This document shows, in pieces, positions 3,940-41,293 of a DNA stretch of 64,000 bases. Origin of the DNA: Parvularia atlantis (lineage: Eukaryota); contig CALSCO010001030.1 in NCBI GenBank assembly GCA_943704415.1, positions 1 to 64,000 on the forward strand, read 5' to 3'. A program made the position numbers and the translations under genes. Within the stretch, counting starts at the first letter, position 1. Every line of letters begins with the position of its first letter. Below the pieces are notes generated by a model. It did not search any database, was not told the DNA's origin, and was given only the letters and a program-made list of their open reading frames with translations.

Positions 3940-3980
3940 ATCGAGCTTAGCGCAGAAAGCGCAAGCAGTCTGAACATATT

Positions 3981-5541
3981 ATGGCAACAACCGCGCGCGC
4001 GAGGTCGTCCGGCTCCGCGACCTTCTTCGTCGCTGCGTCGACCGCGGCAGCGTCGGTGTCGGCGTCGGCAGCCGCAGCGTCACCCGGTGCGGAGCCCGCC
4101 GCGCAGCCGGAGCCGCTCGGGCGGCGCGGGCGCGTGCCGTCGCTGCCGATGCTGGTGCGCGCTCCGACGTCAGGCTTGGAAGGCCGCTGCTGAGGCGCGG
4201 CTGCGCAGGCGGCCGCCGAGCGCGATCTGCTCGTGCACTACGTCGCGAAGGACTACCACCGGCGCCTGCGCGTGGTCAACAACATGCTTGTGGCGGTGCC
4301 GCACGCCCGCGCGCCCCCGCACGGCCCGCCGCAGACTCACGACTCGGCTCGCGCTTGGCCAGGACGCGATCGCGCTGTGCGTGCAGAAGCTCGGCTGCCC
4401 GGACCGCGACTACGACGTGCCCGCGCACGAGCAATACGGCCTGTACGTGCCGTCGACGGTGTGTGTGTGTGTGTGTGTGTGTCGTGGCGTGTGGCGTCGT
4501 GTTGCCACGGTCTGAGCACGCGACGAGCGCAGGGCCAGTGGGTCGACGCGTCGCGCGGCAGCGACCTCTTTGGCGTGACGGACAAGGTGCTGCGCAAAGC
4601 ATGCCGTCACCCAGCTAACGATGGCGGGCCGGCGACGCACAGGAGGAGCTGCAGTTGCACAACCGCGCTGACCCGATCAAGCTGCCGGCAGTGCGCGACA
4701 CTCAGTTGCGCCCGGCACGCAGGCGCTCACCCGCCCGGCAGACGGTGGCAGCGCGCTCGCACTACGCCGAAGGCTGGCTGCACAAGCAGGGCCCGCACTC
4801 GACGGCGTGGCAGCCGCGCTTCTTTGTGCTGATCAACCACACGCTGACCTATTACAAGCGCAAGCCGGTGCGCGAGGCGCTCACGGCGGCCGGCACACGT
4901 GTGCGCACTAACGGTGGCGCTGCCTGACGCAGCGCGACTGCGCCGGCGAGGAGCCGCCCGCGGGCGAGATCGACCTGACGGCCGCGTTCGAGTTTGGTGT
5001 GTCGCCGATGTGCGCGTGCGTGGCCCGTCAGCAGGCATCGGCCAACGTCTCACGCGGCTGGCGAGCGCAGTCAGGAGATGCGCGGGTCCATGGAGGACTT
5101 TGCGTTCCACCTCACAAAGCCGCACCGGATATACTACCTGTGCGCGGCCAACTCGGCGGTGCGCACGCGCAGCTGTCTCGGCTGGGGCGCGGGCGTGACC
5201 CGCACGTATTGCGCGCAGGACCTGTCGCACTGGCTGCGCATCCTGCGCCAGCTGCAGGCCGAGCTGCAGGACATGATCCTGTCGGACGGTACGGACGACG
5301 AGGAGTTCTCGTCCAAGGTGTACGAGCCGCACGGTGCGCCGTCAGCCTTGTCGCGCCGGCCTGCTGAGCGCGTGCATCGCCTCGTAGCCGCGCACCACGC
5401 CGGCCTGCCAGACGGTGATAAGGCCGGGTATCTGCTCAAGCGCGGGCGCGCGACCAACATCTGGAAGGGGCGCTGGTTCGTCCTGAAGGACAAGGTGCTG
5501 CAGTACTACAAGGTCTGTCGCCCACACAGTCGCACGCACCG

Positions 5542-6530: not shown

Positions 6531-7858
6531 TCAGAGCAGGAAGGGGATATAGGCGCGGCGGCCGGCCGGGTATTCGCCCTTGAACTTGTCCAGGTACCAC
6601 TTGTGGTTCGAGAGCGCGCGCGGCATGAGGTTGGCAACGGTAAAGACGAAGAACGCGACCTGCACGCGCGCACACGGTTGTCGGCCGGACGGGCGCACAC
6701 CGCGCCGCGTGCGCACCGACGGGAAGGCAAAGTCGGTCGCGATCATGTAGCCCAGCCACTCGACCGTCTCGGCGGTGTAGTTGGCCGCCGTGACGTACTC
6801 AAACAGCCCGCCGCGCGGGATGTGGTAGCCCGTGTCGCCAGGCCTGCGCAGGCCGCGGAGGACTACGAGGCGGGCGGCGAGCGTCAGCGGCGGCGTACCT
6901 GGCGACGGCGCGGCCCTGGCACGCACTGCTGTCGGCCTGGATGTTGGCCAGGAAGCCAAACAGGAACAGCGCCGCGCCGAGCAGGAACTGCGGGTGCGTC
7001 AGCCACGTGTCGTCGTACGTCTTGATGTTGCCGAACCAGCGACCTGGCGCGCAGCGCGTCACACACCCGCTCGCTCGACGTGCACGCGCGCTTACGGACG
7101 GCCGCACCGTGCATGTAGCCGTTGACCGTGCACCACGCAAACGCCATGAAGAACACGAAGAACGGCGTCGGCTTGGCGCCCTTCATCTGCAGCGGGTAGA
7201 TGAGCGCCCTGCGCGGGCACGGCAGTCAGCAGCGCGCACAACAGCAGTAGTAGCGGGCGTGCGCGCGCGTGCCGGTTGGCGTAGTGCAGCAGCAGCATGC
7301 CCAGCAGCACCTGGTTGGCCGCGTGACCGAGCACGGCCGGGTTGGCCGACGTGAACACGAGCGCGCCCGCGACGACGAGCACGGGCACCTCCTGCAGTCT
7401 ACATCGGGCACGGGCTCAGATTACAGCAGCGCGTGGCACAGGCAGGTGGCGCGCACAGCCAGGCGAGGCGGCCGGGCACATCCGGGCCGAAGAGCGACTT
7501 GAGGCCGGTGTGGCGGCCGTACGGCGCCGTCACAAACTGCAGGACTGCAGGCGGGCGGCGTGCAGTGAGCGCGCACGTGCACACGCACAGACGGCAGGGC
7601 AGCGCGGCGCACTCAGCACGATCAGCACCGAGAGGACGAGCGTGCCGTCGGCCAGGCCAAGCATGAAGCCGCGCTCGACCGGGCCGATGGTCGTCGGGTC
7701 GCGGCGGTACTCGGCCCACAGCTGCGCGGCGTAAGCACGATGGGGCGCATGTGGGCGGCGGGGCCGCGCACCGCCGCAAAGTCCGGCACGAGCGCGCCGA
7801 GGCCCTGCGCGCGCACGAGATCGAGGCGCTCCAGGAACCGATCCGCAACGGCCGTCAT
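6531..7858 (-). CDS. 3-oxo-5-alpha-steroid 4-dehydrogenase (SRD5A/DET2 family)
   Basis: APYGRH, AWL/LQEVP, HYANR/ALIYP, NIQADS/.LRGLRRPGDTGYHIPRGGLFEYVTAANYTAETVEWLG, ANLMPRALSNHKWYLDKF...YP..RRAYIPFLL*. Confidence 0.92.
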
Positions 7859-7879
7859 CGTTCTCGAACTTAGATAGCG

Positions 7880-8971
7880 ATGGGCGCGACAAGACGGGCG
7901 TCGTCAGCGCGCGCGCTTGGGTCTGGCGGCGGCGTGGGGCCGGGCGGGTCAGCGACATCGATCGGGCTCGGGAGCAGCGAGCACGGTGAGTCGGCCGCGG
8001 ACACGAGGGACGGCGCAGCGGACGCGGGAGGCGCGCACGAGACCGGCGTCGTAGCGAGCGTTGTGCAGCGCATGACCGGCGTGCTCGAGCGCCTGACGAC
8101 GCTGCCGCCCGTGTGGCTCATGCGCTCGGTGGCGGTGATACAGCTCGTGCGTGCGCACTTCTCGCGCGATGCGGCGGACGAAGGCTGACCGCCATCGGTC
8201 CTGCTGCAGCTCGCGTGCGCCATCCTCAGCCTGTACTGCCTCTTCATCGGCCGGCGGTTCGCGCTCGTCGACTCGGCGACGTACTACATCGCGCTGGCGC
8301 CGCTCGTTGTCGCCGTGATGTACGCCGTGCGCCTGCCCGAGCCGGACGTGAGACGAGTGCGCATTGTGGCACTGGTGCGACCGGGGGCAGCACAGGGGGC
8401 CTCACGGCCGCGCGACTGACGGGCAGGGCGCCCAGTTCATCGCCGTGACGATGCTGACGGGCCTGCTCTCGTCGTTCTTCTTCATGGTCAAGGCGAACGA
8501 GGTCGAGATCCTGCGCCGCGAGTGCTCGCTCACGGTCATGATGCCGCTCGCACGCTACTCGTGTGCGTCAGCACCGCGCGTGAGCGCCGCACCCATCGCA
8601 TCCGCACGCTAACGCGCCACTTCCCGCACAGCGGCCGACTGTGCGCGCATGCTCGCCGACGAGACCGGCTGCGTCGTGCGCAGCGCCATCTTCATCGTTG
8701 TGCAGGCACGCGCACAGCGCGCGGCCGATCGCCGCCGTCCCACCGCCGCCTGACCGCCGCCACCACGGCTGCGCGCGCGCCCGCGCAGATTTGCGGCATC
8801 CACCCGGCCGTGTCGTACCTGATCGAGACGCTGCGACAGCGCGAGCAGCTGCAGGTGCGCCGCGCGCCGCCCCGCAGCACGACCGCGCTCACCCGCACCC
8901 GCCCGGTCCCGCAGCAGTCCCGCAGCAGCAGCACCGGCACCACCACCAGCACAGACAGCGCAAGACAATGA
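7880..8971 (+). CDS. Hypothetical multi-pass membrane protein
   Basis: Hydrophobic exons LACAILSLYCLFIG, YYIALAPLVVAVMYAV and FIAVTMLTGLLSSFFFMV, with regular short introns. Confidence 0.55.
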
Positions 8972-13477: not shown

Positions 13478-15769
13478 ATGGATGCGCAGCCCGCGCCGCT
13501 CGCGCGCGGCGAGCCCATCAACCTGACGATCCGCACGGCCGCCGCGACGATCCGCGCCGAGACGCCGCTGCTGCACGTGCTGCAGCGCGAGGGGCGGACG
13601 GCCGCGGCCGACGGCGGCACCGCTTCGAGCACGCACAGAGTGGCCGATGTGGCACCTTCACCGGCCAACGACGCATCCTGGCGGCGCCCGCCCGAGCCCG
13701 CCCGGCCCCCGGCGCCTCTGCTTTACTCGCCGCACGACGTCGAGCGCCACTCGGCCGCCGCAGAGCTGCAGAGCATCCATCGCGCTTTCACCGGCGCGGC
13801 CGCGGCCGCCGCACCCGATTTCGCCGCCCAGGGCCATCGCCGCTTCGTGCAGCTGCAGTCGCGCGGTCCGGGGCCCGCCAAGCCCGAGCCGAGGCCGGCC
13901 GCCGCGCCGGGCGGGCCGCGCCCGTTCTCGTTCCAGCGGCCGGTGTACTGGGGCGCCATTGTCAGGCCGCCGACGAGCCCGCTGCCGCCCGTGGTCCCAC
14001 CGCCGCTAGGCAACCGCATCGTCACGGACGTGCGGCGTGCAGCGGACGCTGCCGTGCGCCCGCCGGAGCCGAACGGAGCGTCGCACCCGCCCGCTCGCAG
14101 CCTCGACCGAGACCGCGACCGAGACCGCAGCCGCAGCCGCAGCCGCAGCCGCAGCCTCAGCCGGGGACGCGCCGTGCGGTCGTCCAGCCGCAGCAGCAGG
14201 AGCCCGCTTGGGCAGAGGCGGCGGAGCACGAGCCCGGCCGGCGGCAGCAGCCCGGTCCGCGGCCGCGCGCGCGTCACGCTCCGGGGACGCAGCCACAGCC
14301 GCAGCCCGAGCCGCGGGCGCAGCACCAGCCGCAGCAGGAGCAGGAGTACGAGCCACGGCAGAAGCCGCAGCCGCAGCCGAAGCCGAAGCCGAAGCCGCGG
14401 CCGCGGCCGCACGCACCGGCGCAGCACGAGCTCGGGCAGCCTGAGCCGGCGCAGCTGGAGCAGCCGCAGCCGCAGCTCCAGTCGCAGCCGCAGCCGAAGC
14501 CGCGGCCGACGGAACCGCGGCGGCAGCCGCTCGCCCAGTCGGACACGGACCGCGGCCCCGGAAAAGCCGCCCGCGCCCGCGCCCGCCCCCGCCGCGCCCA
14601 TGATCAGCCCCGCGTTCAAGGCGTCGTTTATGCCAATCTCGCCCGAGGCGCTGATGCCGGCCGCCCTAGTTCCATCGGCCCCGCGAGTCGTCGAAGTTAC
14701 GCGCGGCTTGGACGTGCCGCCACAGCCGCCTTTCATTGTCATACCGCGCCGCGTGAGCTCAAGCTCAAGTGTGCTTCCCGGCGCAACGACTTTGCCCGTG
14801 CCGCTGGCGATGCTTCGGCCACCCGTGCCTCTTGCCATGCTGACGCCGCCTGCGTCGGTGCCGCAGCCCGTGCCGGTGCTGCGGCTGGTGGCGCAGCCGG
14901 GACCGGTGGCGCAGCCGGTGCTGGTGCCGCGCAATGTGTTTGACAGCCCGGATCCGATGGACCTCGGCGAGTCGCTCGTGCTGACGCCCGTGCAGGACAC
15001 CGTCGGGCCACCGCCAACTGCACCGCCGCCGGTCGTCGCACCGCCGAGGCGCGCGCCCGTGCCCGCGATCGTGCTGGACGACGACTTACCGGACAGCGAC
15101 GCGGTGCCGATGGACCTGACCGACACGCCGCCGCCCGCGTCGCCCATGGACAGCGCAGCGATGCCAGAACTGGGGCCGAAGCGCTCGGGCATGTTTGCGC
15201 GGCGCGTCGTCGTCACCAACGGCCGGCGCGAGTCTGTCAGCGAAGCTGCCGAGCGCGCCGCTGCCGACAGTGCCGCCGCTGAGCACCTGACTGAAAGCGC
15301 AGCAGCTGCCGAGCGCACCCTTGCGCCGTCACTTGGCCTGGCAATGGCGACCACGGATGAGGCGCCCGAACCCAGCGCTGCGAAGCCAACGCCGGCCGTC
15401 GAGAGCACCACCACCGCGACAGCCAGCACGATCGCTGCCCCAGGCCCCCCAAGGCCACGCCGGAAGCGTGTCGCGCTCACGGCTCAGCGATGCGCCAACG
15501 ACAGTAACTTTTACGTCGACTTGTTCCGCCAGGCGTTGCACCTGCGCGCGCAGCAGGGCGCGCCGCCGCCCGACGCCGCGCACGTCGTGCTGAGCATCGA
15601 CGGGTACGTCTGGTACGAGTACAACCCGGCAGACCTCCACCGGGCGTTGGAAGAGCGCCTGGACGAGCGCCAGCGCCTAATCGTCCTGGCCAAGCGCGAG
15701 CTCGCGCGGCTAAGGAGCGCCTCGCGGACGGCGAGCGCGGAAGCTAGACCGTCTACTAGCCAATCTTAA
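13478..15769 (+). CDS. Intronless Pro-rich protein with a long RS/RD dipeptide domain (763 aa from ATG 13478)
   Basis: Uninterrupted ORF with RDRDRDRSRSRSRS...; the only globular-looking part is the C-terminus (NFYVDLFRQAL...VVLSIDGYVWYEYNPADLHRALEERLDERQRL). The upstream part of track ORF 12443-15769 is antisense to RTF1. Confidence 0.7.
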   Translation: MDAQPAPLARGEPINLTIRTAAATIRAETPLLHVLQREGRTAAADGGTASSTHRVADVAPSPANDASWRRPPEPARPPAPLLYSPHDVERHSAAAELQSIHRAFTGAAAAAAPDFAAQGHRRFVQLQSRGPGPAKPEPRPAAAPGGPRPFSFQRPVYWGAIVRPPTSPLPPVVPPPLGNRIVTDVRRAADAAVRPPEPNGASHPPARSLDRDRDRDRSRSRSRSRSLSRGRAVRSSSRSSRSPLGQRRRSTSPAGGSSPVRGRARVTLRGRSHSRSPSRGRSTSRSRSRSTSHGRSRSRSRSRSRSRGRGRTHRRSTSSGSLSRRSWSSRSRSSSRSRSRSRGRRNRGGSRSPSRTRTAAPEKPPAPAPAPAAPMISPAFKASFMPISPEALMPAALVPSAPRVVEVTRGLDVPPQPPFIVIPRRVSSSSSVLPGATTLPVPLAMLRPPVPLAMLTPPASVPQPVPVLRLVAQPGPVAQPVLVPRNVFDSPDPMDLGESLVLTPVQDTVGPPPTAPPPVVAPPRRAPVPAIVLDDDLPDSDAVPMDLTDTPPPASPMDSAAMPELGPKRSGMFARRVVVTNGRRESVSEAAERAAADSAAAEHLTESAAAAERTLAPSLGLAMATTDEAPEPSAAKPTPAVESTTTATASTIAAPGPPRPRRKRVALTAQRCANDSNFYVDLFRQALHLRAQQGAPPPDAAHVVLSIDGYVWYEYNPADLHRALEERLDERQRLIVLAKRELARLRSASRTASAEARPSTSQS
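14105..14545 (+). repeat. Coding CGCAGC/CGAAGC hexamer repeats (RS domain)
   Basis: Multiple tandem ccgcag runs. Confidence 0.85.
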
Positions 15770-15773
15770 CGTG

Positions 15774-16873
15774 ATGTACACTTTGTCGCTTGCAAAAGTC
15801 GCGCCTGTCATCAACCTCGTTGAGCCGAAGGCGCATGCGCGTCTTTTCGTGCACCTGGGGCTGCAGCGGTGCGGCCGGCAGCGCGTCGGTCCGGGCCTTC
15901 GCCTGGACCGTCGCGGCCGACCACACCGCCCGCCCCGCTGGCGCCGCAGCGTCCTCCGCCCCGGTGCGCCGCGCGGCGCGAACGGCCCGGCGCGCCCTCA
16001 CACGCCCGGCGCAGCGCGTTGAGGACCTCCGCCGAGCCCGCGCCCCTGCGCGCCCCCACCGCCACCGCGCGGCCAAGCGCTCGCGCTGCGCTCCTGCGCC
16101 GTCCCCGCCGGCCGCGGTATTCCGGTGGGGCACGCGCTTGCTCGGCCGGCAACCAGGCTGACACGCGCTGTCGCAGCCCGGCCGACTTCCCGCCGCTGCC
16201 GTCGCGCGCCGCGCCCACCGCCCCGCGCGCCGCCCCCGCCCCGGCCGCCCCGCCCGCACGGCCCGTCGCCGTCGCGCAGCTCGTCAAGGCCGCGCCGCCA
16301 GCCGACGTCGCACAACGCCCCTACAGCCAGGTCGCCGGCGCCGCCGACTCGCACCGCGCGGCCCTGGCCGCCGCCTCGGCCGCCGCTGCCGCTGCCCGCG
16401 CCCCGCTGCCCGCGACACGCCTCGCGCCGCTCACGCGCAAGCTCGTGCGCGTCATCCGCGACGACCTCGCGTGCGTCCCCGCGCCGCCCGTGCGCCCGTC
16501 GCCCGCGACCGTCTCTGCGCCGGCGGCGGCACCGCTGCCCGCCCGCCCGCGCGCACTGCGTTCGCTCCCGCGCGCTGTCACGCTCTTCCGTGCGCGCCAC
16601 CGTCACGTCGCGTGCGTGCGTCGCCTCGCGCCGAGTGCCTTCCTCTCGCGGCGCCTCATTCAGGTGCGCGCAAGGTTGCATTGCTGTGCGCTCAGCACTC
16701 ATCTGCCGCAGCGCATGGTCCGCGCCACGACGTCCACCGCGCTGCTGCGCCAGTACAACTTGCTGCGCCCGTCGTGGGCGCTCGTCGGTGCGGCGCCTCC
16801 GGCTCTGTGAGCGGCCCGACTGACCGCACACGCGCGCACAGACGGCGGCTGGCGCCCGCAGGCCGCTTGCTGA
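15774..16873 (+). CDS. Pro/Ala-rich hypothetical protein, multi-exon; start uncertain
   Basis: Phase-consistent introns near 15963, 16117, 16664 and 16788; ends ...LLRPSWALV/DGGWRPQAAC* (TGA 16871-16873). Confidence 0.45.
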
Positions 16874-16921
16874 GCCTCTCCCTCTCGTGCATCCATTTGC
16901 CTACCCCTGACCTACTCGACC

Positions 16922-19142
16922 ATGCAAGCCCACATCAACCCGTCCCTCGCCGAAGTCACCCGCCGCCTGCTCGACGGCGAGGGCAACATGATCCCCGTCT
17001 TCCGCCAGCTCAACGCCGACCTGCTCACGCCCGTGTCGGTGCGTGCACACAGCCGTCGCTGCCGCTGCGGCAGTGCACTCACCGCCGTCCGTGCCAGGCC
17101 TACCTTAAGATCGCCAAGGGCGCCACGCACTCGTTCCTGCTTGAGTCGATCGCGGGCGGCGAGCGCGTGAGCCGCTACTCGTTCATCGGCGCCAACCCGC
17201 GCAAGATCATCGCCACCGGTCCGAACGAGGCGGTGCAGGGTGCGCCGAGCCACCGTCACGCTGCAAGATGGCGCCGCTCAGACGCGCGTGTGGCGCAGGC
17301 GACCCGCTCGCCGTGCTGGAGCCGCTGCTGCGCGACGTGCGCTACATGCGCGTGCAGGGCCTGCCCGCGTTCACTGGCGGCGCCGTCGGCTACATTTCGT
17401 ACGACTGCGTGCGGCACTTTGAGCCGCGCACGGTACGCCCGCTCAAGGTGCGCAGCGCGCATGTCCCCCCGCGCACCGGTGTGACGCACGCTCGCACGCG
17501 GCGCAGGACGTGCTGCAGATCCCCGAGGCCGTGCTCATGTTCTGCGACACGATCATCGTCTTTGACCACGCGTGGCAGACGATCAAGGTGGGTGCGCACA
17601 GGCTCTGCTGTACTGAAAGGCTTGCTCACGCGCGCCGCGTTCCAGGTCGTCGCGCACGTCTCGCACAACGCCACTGCAGGCACCGACCGCGCTGCCAGCG
17701 AGACCGCCATCGCCGAGGCGTACGCGCAGGCGTCCACAGCGATCGACACGCTGCTGCGCGCACTGCAGGACCCGCACGTGCCGCTGCCACAGCAGGGCAC
17801 CGTAACGTCAAGCCCCGAGGTGGGCGACGACGCGCTGCGACTTGGCTTCACGCTGACTGCGCCGTGCAGCCCGTCTCGAACGTCGGGCAGCAGGGCTACG
17901 AGGACATTGTGCGCAGCCTTAAGCACTTTATCCACGAGGGCGACATTATCCAGGCCGTGCCGTCGCAGCGCCTCGGTGTGCCCTCGCTTGTGCTGCTCAC
18001 GCCGGGCTCATCCGCTCGCGCCGTCAGCACGCCCGACCGAGCTGCACCCGTTCAACCTGTACCGACACCTGCGCTGCGTTAACCCGTCGCCGTACATGTT
18101 CTACGTCGACCTGAAGGACTTCCAGCTGATCGGCGCGTCGCCTGAGGCCATGGTCAAGGTCAGCGCCGACGGCCACTGGCGACGTCGGCGGTCTGACGCG
18201 CCCGGGCCACGCAGGTCACCAACGGCGAGGTCGAGACCCACCCGATCGCGGGCACACGCCGACGCGGCCGCACGCCCGAGGAGGACGTCGCGCTCGAGAA
18301 AGAGCTGCTCGCGGACGAAAAGGTGGCGGCGTGGTGCACCGGCAGCCTCGCTGACGCCGCCACCGTACGCAGGAGCGCGCTGAGCATATCATGCTCGTCG
18401 ACCTCGGCCGCAACGACGTCAACCGCGTCTGCGTGCCGTCTACCGTGCGCGTGGAGGACCTGATGCACGTGCAGCGCTTCTCGCACGTCATGCACATCGT
18501 CAGGTGCGCCTCCGCCCGGCGACACGCGGACGCCGCTCACATCGCGCTGGCGCATGCACGCGCAGTCGCGTGCTCGGCCAACTGCGCGCGGAGTGCACGC
18601 CGTTCGACGCCTTCCGCTCGATCTTCCCGGCCGGGACCGTGTCGGGCGCGCCGAAGGTCAGTCGCGTGCGGCATGCGCCCTCACACAGGAAGCGTTGACC
18701 CGACCGGCCGCAGATCCGCGCGATCGAGCTCATCAGCGAGCACGAGAAGGAGTGCCGCGGGGTCTACGCCGGCGCAGTCGGCTACTTTAGGTGCGCGCAG
18801 CCGCCAGTTCGCGCGATCTGCTCACGCGGTGGGCGCCGGCCCAGCTACTCGGGCGACATCGACACGTGCATCGCCATCCGCACGATCCTGCACAAGAACC
18901 GCACGCTGTACCTGCAGGCCGGTGCGGGCATCGTCTTCGACTCGGACCCGACGGCCGAGTACGAGGAGACGATTGCGAAGCTCAACGCGAACCTGGCTGC
19001 CATTCGCTCGGCAGAGCAGACGTACGCGGCACCGCTCGGTGCGTCGCGCGTGCCTGTGCGTGCGCTGGCACGCTGACGGTGCGCAGAGGGCGAGCAGGAC
19101 GGCTCGTCGGCCAGCAAGCGCCGGAAGCAGTCGCGCAAGTAG
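16922..19142 (+). CDS. trpE: Anthranilate synthase component I (TRP2/TrpE)
   Basis: DLLTPVS/AYLKI...[101 protein letters not shown]; last exon ...SKRRKQSRK* (TAG 19140-19142). Confidence 0.96.
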
Positions 19143-19153
19143 ACACGCCCACC

Positions 19154-20014
19154 ATGGCAGCGGTCCACAACGGCGGCAGCAGCGGCGAGCGCGCCGCCCC
19201 GCGCGTGCTGCTGATCGACAACTACGACAGCTTCACGTGGAACGTCTACCAGTACCTCGAACTGGCGGGGGCGCGTGTGACCGTGCACCGCAACGACAAG
19301 GTGCGCGCGGAGTCGCACCCAACGTCGGCTAGCTCATCGTTGTTGCGACAGATTACCGTGCAAGAGTGCGAGGCGCTCCAGCCGACCCACATCGTCATCT
19401 CGCCAGGGCCCGGCCGCCCAGCCGACGCCGCCGTGTCGAACGACGTGATCCGCACGTTCGCGGGGCACGTGCCCATCCTCGGCGTGTGCCTGGGCGAGCA
19501 GTGCATGTACGAGCTGTACGGCGGCGTGGTGCGTGTGCGCGCGGGGGTTCGACGCCCGCCGACATCAACGCGCAGGTGACCTACGCCGGCGAGATCAGGC
19601 ACGGCAAGACCGCGCCCGTGTCGCACGACGGCCGCGGTGTGTTCAAGAACGTGCCGGACAACATCGAGATCATTCGGTACCACTCGCTCGCCGGTGCGCA
19701 TCGCGTGCAAGCGGTGTCGGCGCTCTCGCTGACGTGCGCTGACCGCAGGGGACCCGGCGACGCTGCCTGCCGTGCTGGAGATCACAGCGCGCACGGCCAA
19801 CGGCATCGTCATGGGCGTGCGGCACCGCGAGCTGATCGTCGAAGGCGAGCGCGCACGAGGGCACACGCCGTGTGCGCAGGCTGACGAGACACGCACAGGC
19901 GTGCAGTTCCACCCCGAGTCGATCAAGAGCGAGGGCGGCCTGACAATGTTTAGGAACTTTTTGAGCTGGTCCGGCGGGCGCTGGAAGGATCTGCCGCCAA
20001 GCGCGTCATTCTGA
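19154..20014 (+). CDS. trpG: Anthranilate synthase component II, glutamine amidotransferase (TrpG)
   Basis: [62 protein letters not shown] in gcccaccATGG context; TGA 20012-20014. Confidence 0.96.
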
Positions 20015-20072
20015 GCGTATGCGCGGGTCCTGCGGTCTGAGCGCTCAAGCTAACCGCGGGCGCAGACGACCG

Positions 20073-21236
20073 ATGGCGCAGCCGACCATTCTCGAGCGCA
20101 TCGTGCAGCAGCGGCGGCTCGACGTGGCCGCTGCCAAAGAGCGCGAGCCGCTCGAGGCGCTACGTGTGCGCGTCACGACGTCGGCTCCGGCGGCAATCGA
20201 CTTTCACGCGCGGGTGCGGCAGCGATTGCGTCGCGATGAGCACCTCGCTCATGCGCAGCCTCTCGCCAGCTTCTGCGCGCCGTGCAGCCGCCAGCGAGCC
20301 ACGTCGCCGTGATTGGCGAGATCAAGCGCGCGTCGCCGTCCAGAGGAGGCACGTCGCGGTGGTGGGCCTCCAGATGCGCAGCCGCGCTCACACACCGCGC
20401 GCCCGCAGACATCGCACCGGGAGCCGATGCGCTGGCCACTGCCCTGACATATGCGCACGCGGGTGCGGCCGCGATCTCGGTCCTCACCGAGCCGACGTGG
20501 TTCAAGGTGCGCTGCGCACGCTGCTGCTGCCGCGCTGCACCGCGACACTCACGGGATGGGCAGGGCCACCTCGAGGACCTGCGGGAGGCGCGCGCGGCTA
20601 TCGAGCGCAAAGTTGGCGCCGACGCGCGCCCGGCGTTCTTGCGGAAGGACTTTATCGTTGACGAGTACCAGGTCGCGTCTTGGGAGCCCCATTTACTCGG
20701 CCCGCTGAGCGTGCGCGCCCAGGTGCTCGAGGCGCGTGTCGCCGGCGCCGACACGGTGCTGCTGATCGTCGCGTGCCTGTCGGACGACGAGCTGCGCGAG
20801 TTGATGCGCACGTCCCGCGCCCTGGGTATGGAGCCGCTGGTGGAGGTAAACAACGCCGACGAGGTGTGTGCATGCGACCTGTGCGGCATAAGCATGCTGA
20901 CGGCCGGACGCAGATGCGGCGCGCGCTGGCGCTGGGCTCGCGCGTGATCGGCGTCAACAACCGCAACTTGCACAGCTTCACGGTTGACATGAACACGACG
21001 TCGTCGCTGGTGCGGTGTCCTGCGGTGCGCCGCGCTCGCGCTGACGCCTGCCCGGCCAGGCCGAAATGATCTCGCGGGACGGCGACGTGGTGCTCGCGGC
21101 GCTGTCGGGCATCACCGGCCGCGCCGACGTGGCCGCGTACGAGGCGCAGGGCGTGCGCGCGGTGCTCGTGGGCGAGGCGCTCATGCTGGCGGCCGACAAG
21201 GCCGCGTTCATCCGCGGTCTGCTCACGGCAACATGA
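20073..21236 (+). CDS. trpC: Indole-3-glycerol-phosphate synthase (TrpC)
   Basis: [94 protein letters not shown] 21234-21236. Confidence 0.95.
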
Positions 21237-22235
21237 CGTTGGTCAAGATCTGCGGCGTGCGCGGCGAGGACGGTGCACGCCCGCCTGCGCCGCGTGCTGC
21301 CCTGCTGGTCGCTGAACATCTGCGCAGCGGCTGTCACTGCAGCCGACGCCGGCTGTGACCTCATCGGCCTGATCTTCGCCGTCTCCAAGCGGCAGGTGGC
21401 CCTCGCGACGGCGCAGGGCATCGCTGCGCGCGTGCGGTCGCCGAACGAGCGTGGCACGGCGCAGCTCGACGACACATCGTACACCGCAGCGGCGCGCTCG
21501 CTGACCGCCGAGCGGATGCGGCTGGGGCGGCCGCTGCTGGTCGGCATCTTTGCGGACCAGCCCGCGGAGCATATCAACGAAATTGCGGGTGCGCCAGCCG
21601 CGCGCGCCGTCGTGTGTGTGCGTGCGGATGCTGACCGGGCGCCCCGCGCAGAGGCCGTGCCGCTCGACCTGGTGCAGCTGCACGGGCTGCACGAGCCCGT
21701 GGACATGCCGGCAAAGGTGCTCGCGAGGTCTGGTGGGCACGGGCGCTGACGGTGCGCGCGTGCAGATCGTGCGGCCGTGCCTGCGCGCGCTGCACGTGCT
21801 CCCGGACGACACGGCGGCGACGGTGCGAGAGCGGTGCGTTGGCTGGAGCAGGAGGAGGTTGTGCTCGCGCTCATCGGTCACACAGGCTGCGCGCGCACGA
21901 GGGCCACGCCGCGCTAAGCCTGCTGGACACGGGTGTCAAGGGCTCTGCGGTACAGGGCGGGAGCGGCAAGGGTGCGCGCGTGCGATGCCGCTCACTGCTG
22001 CCACCGATCTTTGCCGCGCGCAGAGTTTGACTGGTCAATCGCCGCCGAGCTCGCGCGCGAGGGCTTCCCGTTCCTGCTCGCGGGCGGGCTGACGCCGACG
22101 ACGGTCGCGAGCGCTGTGGTGCAGGTGCGGCCGCTGGGCGTGGACGTGTCGAGCGGGGTCGAGGACGCGGCGACGGGACAGAAGGACCTTGGCAAGATTT
22201 GCGCGTTTGTAGCCGCCGCTGCTGTGTCTCGGTGA
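21233..22235 (+). CDS. trpF: Phosphoribosylanthranilate isomerase (TrpF)
   Basis: [40 protein letters not shown]...[26 protein letters not shown]...[10 protein letters not shown]. Its ATG overlaps the trpC stop (ATGA). Confidence 0.94.
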
Positions 22236-22250
22236 TCGATCGCGCACCAC

Positions 22251-23321
22251 ATGCTCGTGCACAGCGCGCGCCTGGTGGTGCCCGAGGGCGCGGCGAGCGC
22301 CGTGCGCCTGGCGGTGCGCGTGGGCGTGCCGAGCGTTCCCGGGCCGCGAGCCGCGACAGCGCTGATCATCGCGCATCCGTGGGGGCGCGTGCCGGCTGCG
22401 CGCTCTGCCTCGTCTCGGCTTCTGACGCGCGATGCGCGCCCCGACAGCCCGCTCGGCGGCAACGCCGACAACAACGTCGTCCAGGCCGTGTTTGGGCACT
22501 TTGGGCAGCTTGGGTACACGGTCGCGTGCTTCGACATGCGGTGCGGCGTGGCGCGTGTGGCGATGCGCGATGATGGCGCGGGCTGATCGACGGCGTGCAG
22601 GGGCGCAGGCGCGTCGACCGGCTCGACGTCGTGGACCGGTGCGGCGGCGCACGCGAGCTGCGTGCCGACGGGTGGCATCGCTCACGCGGACGCGGCGCGC
22701 GCGCAGGCGCAAGCGAGGCCGAGGACGTGCGCGCCATTGTGCGGTACGTGCTGAGCGCGCAGGCCGGCACGGCCACGCCGGTCGAGCGCATCGTGCTCTG
22801 CGTGCGTGCGCCACACGCGCGCGCGGCACTGCACCGCTGAGCGTGCCCGGACGCGCGCACCAGGGCTACTCGTACGGCGCCGCCGTCTCGGGCATGGTCG
22901 TCGACGAGTTCCCGCAGATCGTCGGCTACGTCGCGATCGCGTACCCGTTCAGCGTGCTGTGGTCGGTGCCGCGCACCCCGCGGACGGTCCGCCGCTCACG
23001 CGACGCACCGCGCAGGTTCCTCACCTCGCTCACGCACGGCGCGGTCCTGGCGAGGGCGCGCACAGCCAAGCCCAAGCTGTTTGTCCAGGTGTTGCTGATG
23101 CGCGCTTGCTGGCCGCAGCAGCGACTGAGCCCAGAACGGCGGCCGCGCAGGGCGACTGCGACAACTTCACGGGCCGGTCGAGCTACACGTACTACCTCAA
23201 CTCGTTTGCGCAGCCGCTGCAGGTCGAGTGGATCGACGGCGCCGACCACTTCTTCTGGAGCCGCGAGAAGCAGGTGGTGCGCGCGATCGAGCAGTGGCTG
23301 CAGACGGCGTGTCGCCTGTAA
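22251..23321 (+). CDS. Alpha/beta-fold hydrolase
   Basis: AHPW/.PLGG, FDMR/GAGASTG, nucleophile GYSYG, GDCDNFT (Asp), GADHFF (His). Confidence 0.88.
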
Positions 23322-23335
23322 AACAAAGCTGACCC

Positions 23336-25081
23336 TCATGCGGACCCTGCTGCCGGCTGGCACACGAGCTTGTGCCGCGGCCAGTCGTCCTGCTGGCATG
23401 TGCGGCAGCAGTAGGCCGCGCGCTTGCAGCGGCCGCAGTGCGACAGCGGCACGTACTCCTGCGCGCACGCCTGAGCACGCGTGCATGCAGACGCCGCCTC
23501 TGTGCACCGTCCGGCGCGCGTCTGCCATCATCGTGCGCTCGAGCTGCTCGGCCAGGCGTGCGTAGCGCTGCACAACCGCGTCCCGCGCCGGCTTTGTGTC
23601 GGCTGGCGCGACACGAGGCTCAAGACGCTGACCACTGAGTGCCGTGCAACCACGAGCGTACCGCCGTCCGCGATGCCCTCGAGCTCGCGCGCCATCGCCG
23701 GCTCGAGCTCCTGCGTCCAGCGCTGCTTGACTTGCGCGACGATCTGGTGCCGTGCCCATTCAGCGGGCGTGACAGGACGCGAGCACGCAGCACGACCTCT
23801 TTCTTGCGCATGTGGTCCCGCGACGACAGGTGCCGCCCAAACGTCGCGAGCAGTTCGGGCGCGTCAGGCGGCCCGCTCGAGCGCGCGCACTCGGGCCGCT
23901 CGCACAGGACCTCAGGCCGCTCATCCGGCCGAAAGGTCAGCGCCGCCGCTGGGCAGGACGGCGCGCAGTGCTCACCTCTGTGCTGGCGTTGTGGTCGTGG
24001 ATGGGCCACGGGACGCACACCTTGCGTGACAGACCCGGCACGGTTGCGATGAACGGCGCGAGCACGTCACCGTGCCAGAACGGCACCTGCGCGCGCGCAC
24101 GCGTGGGACGCACGCGCACGCCAGCGCCCCGGCTCGCACCAGCACAAAATCTTGGTCGACGAGCGAGTAGAGCGCCGCGACGGGGCAGTCGAGCTCGCCG
24201 CGCAGCCGGAAAACCGTGTGGGTGAACGAGCGCAGCAATGCGGCGTCGTGCCCGGCCGCCTCCCACACGCGCCTGAGTGCGAGCGTCTCGTCACGGATGG
24301 CCGAGGGCAGCGGCGCGTTCGGGTCCCGGCGGTCGTCGTCGTCGTCGTCAGACGGTTCGTCATCCGACGCGTCGTCCTGCGAGCGCGGTGCGCGGCCGCT
24401 GGCGCGCTGGGCCTCGTCCTGCCGGTGTGGCGATCAGCCTCGGGTAGAGTGCCCACGCGCACGTGCCTGTCGCCTTTGCGACTCGACGAAGGCGCGCAGA
24501 CAGTTAAGGCGCACGGCCGCGGCGACGACGAGGGCCGACGCGCTGCGCTCGTACCTGCGCTTGGGTTCAAAGGCGCATTGATGCGCGTGACAGTGGCCCC
24601 CGCACCGCGCGTTAACCAGCGCGAGCGGCACGGCGAGCTGGCGCAGGATGTGCGTGGACATTTTGAACAGGTTCTCGGTCGTGTCGAGGCGCGGCACGGC
24701 GCGGAAGACGACCGCGGGCCAGTGGAAGCGCGCGGTCCGGCCCGTGTCGAGCGCGAGCATCTGCCACGACGTCGGCCGGCCCTCACTGTCTGCGTGCGCG
24801 CACGTCAGACGGCCGTGGTGGCGCGCGATCGGTCCCGACGTGCCTGCCGGCAGGAAGAGCGTCTGCGGGCGCCGCCGCGTCTGCTCGCGCGCCCACTCGG
24901 CGATCTGCCGGCGCTCGTCCACCTCGAGCTTGTAGAAGATTTCCTCAACCTGCCGCAACGCAGCGATCACCGGCGTCAGATGGTGTCAGCAGGCCGCCGT
25001 CGACGGCGCACGCGCCTGGGTCGCGCTAAGGCGGCACTGCGCAATGTCGCGCGGCAGAGTCTTGGGCTCGTCCGCGGGCAT
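23336..25081 (-). CDS. Hypothetical protein with a C-terminal MYND-type zinc finger
   Basis: Last exon LSHCGRCKRAAYCCRTCQQDDWPRHKLVC...*; upstream exons are unassigned. Confidence 0.65.
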
Positions 25082-27614: not shown

Positions 27615-27710
27615 TGCGGCACAAAGAGGGAAAGTGTGTTTCCGCGGCGTCCAGTTCACCGGCGAAGGTTCCAGAACAGCCTGTGACGTCGAAGCACGCG
27701 ATTCGCCAGA

Positions 27711-33500: not shown

Positions 33501-34998
33501 GAGCGCGTGTCACGCACGGGCCTGCGCGGCCGCCTCGGCCGCGGCGCGCTGGCTGCGCAGGTGCGACATGAGGCCGGCCGCCTTGCCGTCCTTGGCCAAG
33601 ATGTACTCCTTCGCGTCCTCGGACACGATGCGGTTTGACTCGGTGCCGCTGAACAGGCGTGCACGTGTGAGCACGGCCGCGCCCGGGGCGGCGCCGGCAA
33701 CGCACGCAACGCAGTTCTCCTTGCGCAGCACGTCGCGCACCTCGTCCATCTTGCTCCACAGGTTCGAGCGATGCACCGTGTTGCGTATCTGCGCGCCCGG
33801 CGTCAGGGCCTGAGCGAGGCGCGGTTCCACAATGCCACCGCGCCTGCAGCAGCGAAAAATCGGCCGCCGTCGATGTGTTCTCCATGTGCGATCGCAGGCG
33901 CTTCCACGACGTCTCGCGGCTGCGCACGGTCAGCTCGGCGACGATCTCGTGCTGCGCCGCCGCCGCCTCGTGTCAGCGCGCCGTGCGCTCGAACGGGCAG
34001 CGGCACGACTCGCCTGGATCATCGGCGGCAGCGTCGCAAACTCGTCCGAGTGGATGTCGATCGACGTGCCCTCCTCGTCGATGATGAAGCGGAACTCACC
34101 CTTATAGTCGTCGTTGAAGCGCGAGCGCAGCGAGAACGACGGGCTGCGCGGCACATGACGCTCAGCCAGTTTGCGCACACGCGCCGCGCTCCGAGCTCAA
34201 AGCGCACAAGCGCTCCTCGTCCGACTCGGCGCCCTCGACGGCCGGCGGCACCTCAAACTCGTCGCGCTTGCGCTTGCCTGCGCGCGCACATAGGCGGCGT
34301 CACCAACACAAAGGCAAGCAAAGTCCACCGCCCACCATTGCCGGCGCGGCGCACGGCCAGGGCGCCGACATCCGCGTCGGCGTCGGCATTGGCAGTGCCG
34401 CCCGCGTCGTCGTCCGCCGTCGCCTTGGCCTTGCCCTTGCGCGTGCTGAGCCGTGCATGGACGCGTGAGCCGTCGGACGAGCGGCTGCAATCGCCAACGC
34501 AGCGCACCGCGCGGCCGCCAGCGCCTGCGCGCGCAGCTGGTTCGACAGGAGCTTCTCGGCGGTTTTGCGGAAGCTCGTGGCGGTGCGGTCCTGGCGCTTG
34601 CGGCGCTCGCTCTGGCGCGGCGCGGGGGAGGCGGTGAACGCGCAGCCGATCGGGCCAGCAGTTCGCCACGAGCGCACGAGGGTCTTCTGCTTGAGCATCG
34701 GCGCGGCGCCGTCAAAGACAAAGACCGGCCGGACCTTGTAGAACAGGAGCTTGCAGACGCGTCGGAAGAAGCCAAGCAGGTGCGCGTTGCGCAGCAGGTT
34801 GCCCTCGCCGTCACGCATCGCCTTCAAGAACTGGTTGAGCCAGATGCTCGCGTCTGGACGGCGACCGGCTGAGCGCAGCGGACCGATGACGGGCGCGCAC
34901 GCGCGCGCACCGACGGCCAGGCGTTTGCCCGCGAGCGACTCGAGCCGCACGGGGCGCCCCACCGGCTGCAGCAGCGGCCACAGGCCCTGCACGCCCAT
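30514..34998 (-). CDS. RAD2: XPG/Rad2 structure-specific endonuclease (ERCC5)
   Basis: N-domain [10 protein letters not shown]...[17 protein letters not shown]...PVFVFDG; I-domain [48 protein letters not shown]; long spacer between them. Confidence 0.95.
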
Positions 34999-35036
34999 CG
35001 CGGTGGCGCTACCGTTCGAAGCTGCGCTCGAATGTT

Positions 35037-36610
35037 ATGGCGTCGGCGCGTGTCACCGAGCTCGTCGCGGCCTTTGCGGCGCTGCCGCCGGCTGAGCAGC
35101 GGCGCTTGTGGGTCGCCGCGGTGCGCACATGGTCCGTGCTGAGGGCGCCGCGGCGCGCGCAGCCTGCAGACCGTGCCACCGATTTGGCGCGACGACGCGC
35201 GCACCGCCGCCGCGGTCCTCGCCGACGCGCAGGCCGCGTACGACGCGCGCACGTTCGACGTCGTCGCGCGGCTCCCGCTCGAGCTCGCCGTCGCCGTCTA
35301 CGCGCTGCTCGACACCGCGGCGATGCTCGCCTTCGCGCACGTGTGGTGCCGAGGCGCAGCGCCAAGGCGCGGTGCTGACGGGCTGCGCGCCGCAGGTCAG
35401 CACCGCGTACCGCTGCGTCGCGCACAGCGAGCCTGCGACGCGCCTGCTGCGCGAGCGCCTCCGGGGCCCGCCGCGCCTGGGTGACGGCGAGCTCACGCCG
35501 CGCGAGGCCCAGCGCCTGCTGCACCGCGAGCTGCTGTGGCAGACCGCCGCGTTCCGCTTCACCAACCAGTGGAACCACGACGGGCACACGATCGTGCGCT
35601 GCCGCGACGGGCGGCTGCTCAACACGGCGTTCAGCCGCGACTTTGACAACGCTGCGCTGGTGCTCTACGACCTGACGCGGGCCGACGTGCCGCGGGTGGC
35701 GAGCTTCGTCGACGGCGAGCACTTGCAGATGTCGCTCGTGGATCTGTCGGTGCCGGTCGGCGTCGTCGCGGCCGCGCACTTTCTGCGGTGCGGACCTGCG
35801 CGCGTGTGCGTGGCCGTGCTTGTGGCGCTGACCGAGCACGTGAGAACAGGTGTATGGTCACGCTGTGGCCGCTCAAGATCGGCGACGCCGCGGCGCGGCC
35901 GACGCACCGCTTCGTCGCCCACGCCGACCGCATCACGGCCATCGCGCTCAGCCAGGACCCGGCGCGACCGTGGCTGGCGACCGCGTGCAGCAGCGGCAGT
36001 GTGAGCGTGTGGGACGTGCACACGGCCGAACGCCTGTGCACAATCACGCTCGACGAGCGCGACACGCCCATGTCGCTGCACTGGCGGCCCGCGGCCGCGC
36101 TTGCTGCGGGCGCCGAGCTCGTCGTCGTGCACCACAGCCCGGTCATGCTCAGCGTGCTGCAGGTCGACGCCGGCAGGTGCGAGATTGTGCGCGTCCTGCA
36201 CGAGGGGCCCGTGGCCCTGACCAGGTGCGCTCGCCCGAGGCAAGTCTTCGCTGAAGCGTGGCAGCACACGCAGCCCGCGCGCGCGCACGATTATGGACGC
36301 GCTGCCGGACGGCGAGTACGTGTGCATCAAGGAGAAGCTGGGCACGGCAGCGCTGCTCGGGCGCAGGCGCGCGAGCATCTGGCGATACACGACCGGGCTC
36401 ATGCGGCTCGCCTACTTTGCGGTCGACGGCACGACGCCGCAGCTCAAAACGGAGCTGGAGGTGCCGCGGCAAGGCAGTACGGTCCTGGCCGACCTGCAGT
36501 GCGACGAGACGCGCCTTGTGCTCGTGCGGCACGGCCGTGTTCCCGCGGACAACAGCGTCGTGGTAGTGTACAAGCCGCGCGAGAACACAGCCGTGCCAGC
36601 GGCCGTCTGA
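35037..36610 (+). CDS. F-box protein with divergent WD40-like repeats
   Basis: FDVVARLPLELAVAVYALLDTAAMLAFAH/VSTAYR (F-box); AHADRITAIAL...LATACSSGSVSVWDV. Confidence 0.7.
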
Positions 36611-41165: not shown

Positions 41166-41293
41166 GCGCCCGCCCGCTCCGCACCCACGGCCACGCGGCC
41201 ACGCGGCGCGACTAGCTGCGTGTGCAGACAGCAAACAGCCCCTGTCGCGCGAAGCAGGAACCGCTGACCCATTGTGGGCGAATTTCGACTAGC

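Follow-up and report, generated by a model that had tools for sequence, protein, structure and literature searches.

The window analysed in this work, a whole stretch of 64,000 nucleotides, has about 70% G+C and belongs to an intron-rich eukaryote. Its trpG exon matches P0001, a EukProt protein of Parvularia atlantis, at 100%. Parvularia atlantis is a rotosphaerid opisthokont, a nucleariid, and nucleariids are the sister group of fungi. Four genes of tryptophan synthesis lie in the window in the order trpE-trpG-trpC-trpF, between a gene with no assigned function, here called gene B, and a hydrolase-like gene. These genes, their joints and the smaller elements discussed below are the following:

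15835 to 16873, forward strand: gene B, a gene model encoding a 294-aa protein of no assigned function, its first intron predicted only
16922 to 19142, forward strand: trpE, anthranilate synthase component I, 518 aa, 12 introns, stop TAG, a spliced model without internal stop
19143 to 19153, forward strand: trpE/trpG spacer, 11 nt, out of frame, crossed with 0 differences by RNA contig piece 19086-19298
19154 to 20014, forward strand: trpG, glutamine amidotransferase (PF00117), 217 aa, 4 introns seen in RNA
19945 to 19964, forward strand: AT-rich patch (15/20) in the last exon of trpG, candidate trpC promoter or 3'-end signal
20005 to 20010, forward strand: weak alternative donor GTCATT, -6.1 bits, not seen used
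20017 to 20065, forward strand: GT-AG intron of 49 nt in the trpG/trpC spacer, RNA contig joint 20016 to 20066
20049 to 20054, forward strand: branch motif GCTAAC, 11-16 nt before the end of that intron
20073 to 21236, forward strand: trpC, indole-3-glycerol phosphate synthase (PF00218), 279 aa, 6 introns, all in RNA
21233 to 21236, forward strand: ATGA overlap of the trpF start with the trpC stop, -4 nt, out of frame, in sequence and RNA
21233 to 22235, forward strand: trpF, phosphoribosylanthranilate isomerase (PF00697), 243 aa, 5 introns
22251 to 23321, forward strand: alpha/beta hydrolase-like gene, weak match to PF20408 (E 0.017, below the cut-off)

TrpE is 60% identical to chytrid TrpE domains, its exons match PF00425, and the lengths in its model agree with the coordinates of the RNA contig. 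The protein ends in a basic, Lys/Arg-rich tail (window 19100-19142), which we take to resemble a nuclear localisation signal. The spliced TrpG of 217 aa is identical to P0001 and ends at the TGA at 20012-20014. TrpC shares 57-60% identity with the fungal TrpC domains of P0016, P0152 and P0008, and TrpF 32-38% with fused TrpF domains. Two introns, at 19845-19898 in trpG and 20349-20408 in trpC, are of the GC-AG type and consistent with joints of the RNA contig. The introns of gene B at 16664-16711 and 16788-16841 also fit the contig. At the far end, contig piece 21059-21271 crosses the ATGA overlap with 0 differences, and piece 22023-22383 spans the joint to the hydrolase-like gene, which starts 15 nt past the trpF stop and whose own end carries the AT-rich stretch typical of local gene ends.

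The RNA evidence consists of short-read contigs, from which rare variants drop out, of an RNA run (X2) and a lake metatranscriptome (X3). The original prediction saw an intron between the trpG TGA and the trpC ATG at 20073, with a donor GTATGC at 20017, a branch-like GCTAAC and a CGCAG ending at 20065, and all these positions hold on re-reading of the sequence. In X2, one spliced contig of 4,303 nt joins 20016 to 20066, skipping 49 nt that run from GT to AG without ambiguity, with 120 letters on the shorter side of the joint. This contig is the sole X2 record on 19090-21345, where it has 0 differences and 0 loose ends, and all 11 of its joints listed there are modelled introns. It shows the 20016-20066 joint alone and not the 20004-20066 joint that had been proposed as its counterpart, and no intron retention is found among X2 contigs at this spacer. 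X3 yielded short unspliced pieces only, with no contig over the junction, and in the DNA run X1 (possibly the source of the window itself) the junction stretch is unspliced with 0 differences. The spacer element is a real spliced intron of the spliceosomal (U2) type, and the TGA is kept in the mature RNA.

It is the RNA that settles splicing, as the sequence pattern of this intron is, by itself, within the reach of chance (0.27 matches expected in the window and 1 found, with at least 1 match in 23 of 100 shuffles). The claim that the element has the signals and size of local introns stands for its branch motif and for its length, 49 nt compared with 47-63 nt (median 54) in the other 31 modelled introns of the cluster. 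It fails for the donor, which at -2.1 bits scores under all 31 training donors (leave-one-out range -1.5 to 12.5). Splicing brings trpC into the frame of trpG, as foreseen, and reduces the gap between them from 58 nt to 9 nt, in frame, after which trpC begins at its own ATG. The ATG at 20019, inside the intron and in frame with trpC in the unspliced form, was confirmed from the sequence, as was the in-frame form that a 20005 donor would yield. The local density is 0.0074 introns per exonic base; chance alone would then put 0.26 introns into the cluster spacers, 35 nt in all, so that an intron within one of them needs no special history.

On the spliced RNA the gaps between trpE and trpG, trpG and trpC, and trpC and trpF are 11, 9 and -4 nt, and only the second of these is in frame. 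Together with the 15 nt after trpF, each is shorter than the 8 other same-strand spacers, which measure 21-96 nt (median 44.5; this window only, gene ends placed by hand). The contrast has an exact Mann-Whitney p of 0.002 with spliced lengths and of 0.055 with genomic lengths, in which the trpG/trpC spacer counts 58 nt. The ends of the trp genes also stand apart in composition. An AT-rich 12-mer near the stop, a putative gene-end mark, occurs at 21 of 24 other gene ends and at 0 of 4 trp ends (Fisher p 0.002; at least 8 A/T per 12-mer from -25 to +75 nt of the stop, with the threshold set post hoc, spacers shared within convergent pairs, and two ends dropped whose stops were not located). When the interval is widened to -75, the ends of trpE and trpC are still under the threshold (6 and 7), and those of trpG and trpF look like ordinary gene ends (9 and 8). 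Candidate signals for 3' ends or promoters are missing at the trpE/trpG and trpC/trpF joints, and ambiguous at trpG/trpC and after trpF.

We see an even chance that trpE, trpG, trpC and trpF form one spliced mRNA that is translated by termination-reinitiation into separate proteins, TrpG and TrpC among them. Transcription would start from a single promoter at or before trpE, and ribosomes would stop at the end of each frame and begin again at the following AUG, no more than about 15 nt away. Splicing would both trim the trpG/trpC gap from 58 to 9 nt and delete the upstream in-frame AUG at 20019, and after removal of the intron the restart would fall on the proper TrpC start. By the criteria of PMC7896298 (available part), a polycistronic nuclear mRNA would be recognised by single molecules that span the ORFs, by the lack of 3'-end or promoter signals between them, and by one transcription start, poly(A) after the last ORF only and translation of all ORFs. 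The locus shows the splicing, the kept TGA, four intact frames with their own ATGs, and one spliced contig over all joints, which spans about 16600-22640 from inside gene B to inside the hydrolase-like gene and whose modelled length is 4,301 nt. Leaky scanning is unlikely, with 9, 13 and 22 AUGs lying upstream of the trpG, trpC and trpF starts. Since leaky scanning and trans-splicing (considered below) are both unlikely, termination-reinitiation is left.

The geometry of the joints resembles that of known reinitiation systems. In prokaryotes a -4 ATGA overlap serves termination-reinitiation (PMC6728339, available part), and in RNA viruses such as calicivirus and influenza B the stop and start of such sites lie within 20 nt (PMC10275272, available part), a distance within which the three trp joints fall. 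The gene order trpE-G-(D)-C-F of bacterial loci such as L010 is also like that of the Parvularia run. Unlike these prokaryotic and viral cases, the Parvularia locus is nuclear and intron-rich, has no trpD in the run and has no TGGGA, and the coupling is putative. The viral TURBS is an 18S-complementary motif (UGGGA) upstream of the stop; the 110 nt ahead of each of the four trp stops contain no TGGGA of this kind. Stops ahead of many exon junctions would, moreover, invite nonsense-mediated decay. Reinitiation past long ORFs is known mainly from viruses, and yeast normally does not translate downstream cistrons but can be selected to do so (PMC11952965, available part).

As to the mRNA itself, the original prediction inferred that one pre-mRNA crosses the trpG/trpC junction. 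The transcribed region does cross it, but a contig across genes does not prove one transcript because X2 contigs bridge even convergent genes: another X2 record connects such a pair (23148-23459), and the main contig likewise runs through the 48-nt spacer between gene B and trpE, which is an ordinary one.

The nearest nuclear parallels are the polycistronic mRNAs of green algae, which likewise carry close same-strand ORFs on spliced nuclear transcripts (PMC7896298 and PMC11291117, available parts), and at some of these loci stop and start overlap, as in Parvularia trpC/trpF (PMC11291117, available part). The algae use leaky scanning according to the same part of PMC11291117, whereas 9-22 AUGs precede the downstream starts in Parvularia. 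Here, unlike in algae, the upstream ORFs are 217-518 aa long, four consecutive enzymes of one pathway are encoded, and the single transcript is putative.

A rival explanation, unlikely yet the most serious one, is that trpC, perhaps with trpF, has its own promoter in the last exon of trpG, and that the assembler merges overlapping RNAs. The 49-nt element would then be both an intron of the trpC 5'UTR and one of the trpG 3'UTR, and trpE-trpG and trpC-trpF could each remain coupled pairs. The candidate promoter is the AT-rich patch at 19945-19964, the most AT-rich 20-mer among the 21 gene starts tested, whose 15/20 A/T is reached by 6 of 2000 random 150-nt windows. Nevertheless, it is partly forced by the conserved residues that it encodes, and it lies 128 nt before the trpC ATG, whereas in most other genes an AT-rich stretch is found 20-40 nt before the ATG. 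Codons ending in A/T are in excess at the ends of trpG (6/22) and trpF (8/25), compared with about 0.095 (the gene ends g6, of uncertain frame, and PP, which spans an intron, being disregarded).

The compactness of the genome also speaks for such a promoter. In several divergent pairs the starts are only 3-40 nt apart (about 3, 21 and 38 nt at 3975-3983, 7856-7882 and 34996-35039, placed by eye), so close that promoters inside coding sequence must occur, and contigs, as noted, bridge even convergent genes. In the microsporidian E. cuniculi, overlapping transcription was found at more than 80% of the analysed loci (PMC2803860, available part). Microsporidia have very short intergenic regions, as Parvularia does, and their transcripts probably run into neighbours (same part of PMC2803860); unlike them, Parvularia is free-living and intron-rich, and its tightest joints are limited to one pathway cluster. 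Against an internal trpC promoter as a full explanation, the trpE/trpG and trpC/trpF joints, where AT-rich signals are missing and, at the latter, the frames overlap by 4 nt, would still need coupling or hidden promoters.

If there is a transcription boundary within the run, the trpG/trpC joint is its likeliest place, which would leave trpE-trpG and trpC-trpF as coupled pairs, because the AT-rich patch lies there and the trpG end looks ordinary in the wider interval. A transcript starting just before the patch would turn the last 22 codons of trpG into a uORF (19947-20014, starting at an internal Met of trpG and holding two Trp codons) that would end 9 nt before the trpC start. Elsewhere in the window, possible 5'UTR introns ending 1 nt before the ATG were noted by eye at 41221-41292 and 27635-27709. 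Short-read contigs cannot separate an operon-like mRNA from an internal trpC promoter, and under both readings TrpG and TrpC are separate proteins.

Programmed readthrough of the UGA by part of the ribosomes, which would yield a G-C fusion like fungal TRP1/TRP3, had been put forward for this junction and appears improbable. Splicing does place trpC in frame with trpG, a 1-in-3 prior, and in algae chance alone puts about a third of the polycistronic pairs in frame (PMC7896298, available part). The linker made by readthrough would be 45 aa between fixed motifs, within the 35-133 aa of 18 fused proteins. A hairpin in the first trpC exon, one of 5 folds tried, has a z of -2.43 over 100 nt, which falls to -1.16 when 147 nt are folded; Rfam gave no match in 15500-23500. 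The stop context is UGA-GCA and not UGA-CU(A), the context that drives readthrough in fungi and is also found in animals (PMC4207609, available part). As in those cases a UGA is followed by in-frame sequence at the trpG/trpC joint, but here an entire enzyme that has an AUG of its own lies downstream. The Met that opens TrpC sits where the stand-alone TrpC proteins P0321, P0302 and P0296 start. The flanking trpE/trpG and trpC/trpF joints are out of frame, so readthrough cannot be a general solution in the cluster. Given the stop context, the frame prior and these neighbouring joints, the proposed G-C fusion by readthrough is not supported.

It is very improbable that regulated splicing to the 20005 donor produces a fused G-C isoform in some conditions, such as tryptophan starvation. 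The donor is weak, as had been said of it; its use would be in frame and remove the TGA, and the resulting 61-nt intron is within the size range. However, its score is the lowest, below all 31 leave-one-out values, and no joint from it is present in the X2 contigs. An ordinary G-C fusion gene made through this donor was rejected, the RNA contig keeping the TGA and P0001 ending at it.

Spliced-leader trans-splicing of a polycistronic pre-mRNA, with the 20065 acceptor as a trans-splice site, is extremely improbable. A good branch motif and an acceptor 7 nt before the trpC ATG are there, and the tight gene spacing fits the spliced-leader operons of nematodes and tunicates (PMC11952965, available part), but in X2 the acceptor is joined in cis to 20016 with no loose end at 20066, and no acceptor precedes the trpF ATG. 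Other candidates were dismissed: a -1 frameshift at trpE/trpG or trpC/trpF (no slippery heptamer, by eye), a sequencing error at the TGA or ATGA (DNA and RNA runs from two studies agree letter for letter) and reassignment of UGA (TGA terminates many genes of the window).

Yeast TRP3 is a G-C fusion, and fungi as a rule join G and C in this order, within G-C-F or E-G-C-F proteins. Fungal TRP1/trpC (G-C-F) and E-G-C-F proteins have the same domains in the same order as the Parvularia run, in which, by contrast, each domain has its own frame with start and stop, and only one joint of three is in frame. Among named proteins, Parvularia TrpG is closest to the G-C-F fusions of chytrids. E-G-C-F models occur in Synchytrium, Borealophlyctis (without the start of TrpG), Thoreauomyces, Blastocladiella, the sanchytrid Amoeboradix and a JGI record, and some of them may be gene models that merge neighbours. 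Balamuthia has E-G, Chromosphaera has G with a TrpD-like tail, and one further protein has E-G-C-F with such a tail (TrpD read by eye in both).

Stand-alone proteins of the Parvularia type are also found. P0002, P0138 and P0140 are TrpG proteins of 202-208 aa, and P0302, P0298 and P0409 are TrpC proteins of 270-272 aa. Taken in this order as pairs, their records have equal longest source sequences (4822, 2018 and 18423 nt) and overlapping source lists, from which we infer that in three environmental relatives TrpG and TrpC appear to be separate as well and to lie on one contig. The TrpC closest to that of Parvularia, P0321 (277 aa, 69% identity), has the same ends, and no copy of Parvularia TrpC itself was among the matches of two protein searches. 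The original prediction suggested that an intron of an ancestral G-C linker may have outlived a fission brought about by a single stop codon; stand-alone TrpG and TrpC with the same ends in relatives speak against so recent an event.

In trees of concatenated TrpG and TrpC, Parvularia and the three split forms make up one group (SH-aLRT 96 in the quick tree, 90/72 in the careful one, which left out two long-branch rows, and a further value of 85). A tree of TrpC only places Parvularia beside P0321 and not with the environmental pairs. The backbone of the concatenated tree is unresolved, and a single clade of all fused eukaryotic forms is not rejected (p-AU 0.573, in a set that left out 12 eukaryotic rows). 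The tree does not distinguish a fission from genes that were never fused; fission would be the more economical reading, given that fusions occur in amoebozoans and fungi. The split state looks common to a clade of relatives and is probably old. The available part of PMC4224340 holds nothing on mechanisms of fission.

A metagenome scan with an alignment of stand-alone TrpG (2 of 64 parts, 80 loci) gave no locus of close relatives; of 9 loci examined, 4 were fused and fungal-type and the others prokaryote-like. Viral contigs gave no match. The GVCLGEQC motif was present at 40 GTDB loci; 14 of them code for TrpG, whose identity to P0002 did not exceed 55% even over the best stretch, so that these loci did not reveal a prokaryotic source of the stand-alone pairs. 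Many mushroom-forming fungi have a stand-alone TrpC of about 275-290 aa (P0303, P0306, P0320, P0410 and others). The TrpC of Dehalococcoidia and Tepidiformaceae (P0327, P0356, P0389, P0411) shares about 60% identity with its eukaryotic counterparts; in a tree without bacterial outgroup it clusters with the split environmental forms (SH-aLRT 97), hinting at a possible transfer in either direction.

The unit possibly extends to gene B as its first frame. Gene B has a homologue in the first 216 residues of P0008, the E-G-C-F model of Synchytrium (score 96, compared with 43.5±7.3 in shuffles and reached by 0 of 2000 of them, for a region picked after inspection; E 0.093 by blastp alone), so that the same gene precedes trpE in a nucleariid and, as the P0008 N-terminus, in a chytrid. 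A Trp near the C-terminus of gene B is also present in that region of P0008, and a tryptophan-sensing leader role for gene B would be a guess. The ESM Atlas had no match for the gene B homologue. Tentatively, and somewhat short of an even chance, tryptophan synthesis in nucleariids may depend on a true nuclear operon, one intron-rich mRNA with four to six frames (gene B-trpE-trpG-trpC-trpF-hydrolase) on which ribosomes reinitiate repeatedly after long ORFs, with a spliceosomal intron setting the distance from stop to start. Such an operon would correspond to the fungal E-G-C-F protein in a split form, or in one that was never fused.

No description of this trp arrangement was found in the literature covered, with most subscription journals and supplements outside its scope, and the data of the genome paper may bear on it. 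We regard the Parvularia run as a variant of known polycistronic or overlapping gene arrangements. Eukaryotic ribosomes are thought to restart poorly past long reading frames, and to our knowledge the known nuclear polycistrons depend on trans-splicing or leaky scanning. If an internal trpC promoter is confirmed, the locus would still clearly exemplify promoters that lie inside coding exons in a free-living, intron-rich genome. If the operon is true, reinitiation could be studied in its natural setting in an opisthokont already in culture, whose pathway cluster would be coupled by ATGA in the manner of bacteria; so could the avoidance of nonsense-mediated decay and the way in which multifunctional enzymes, fungal TRP1 among them, fuse or come apart. 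The operon would also show how eukaryotic genes can merge or separate with no need of new promoters.
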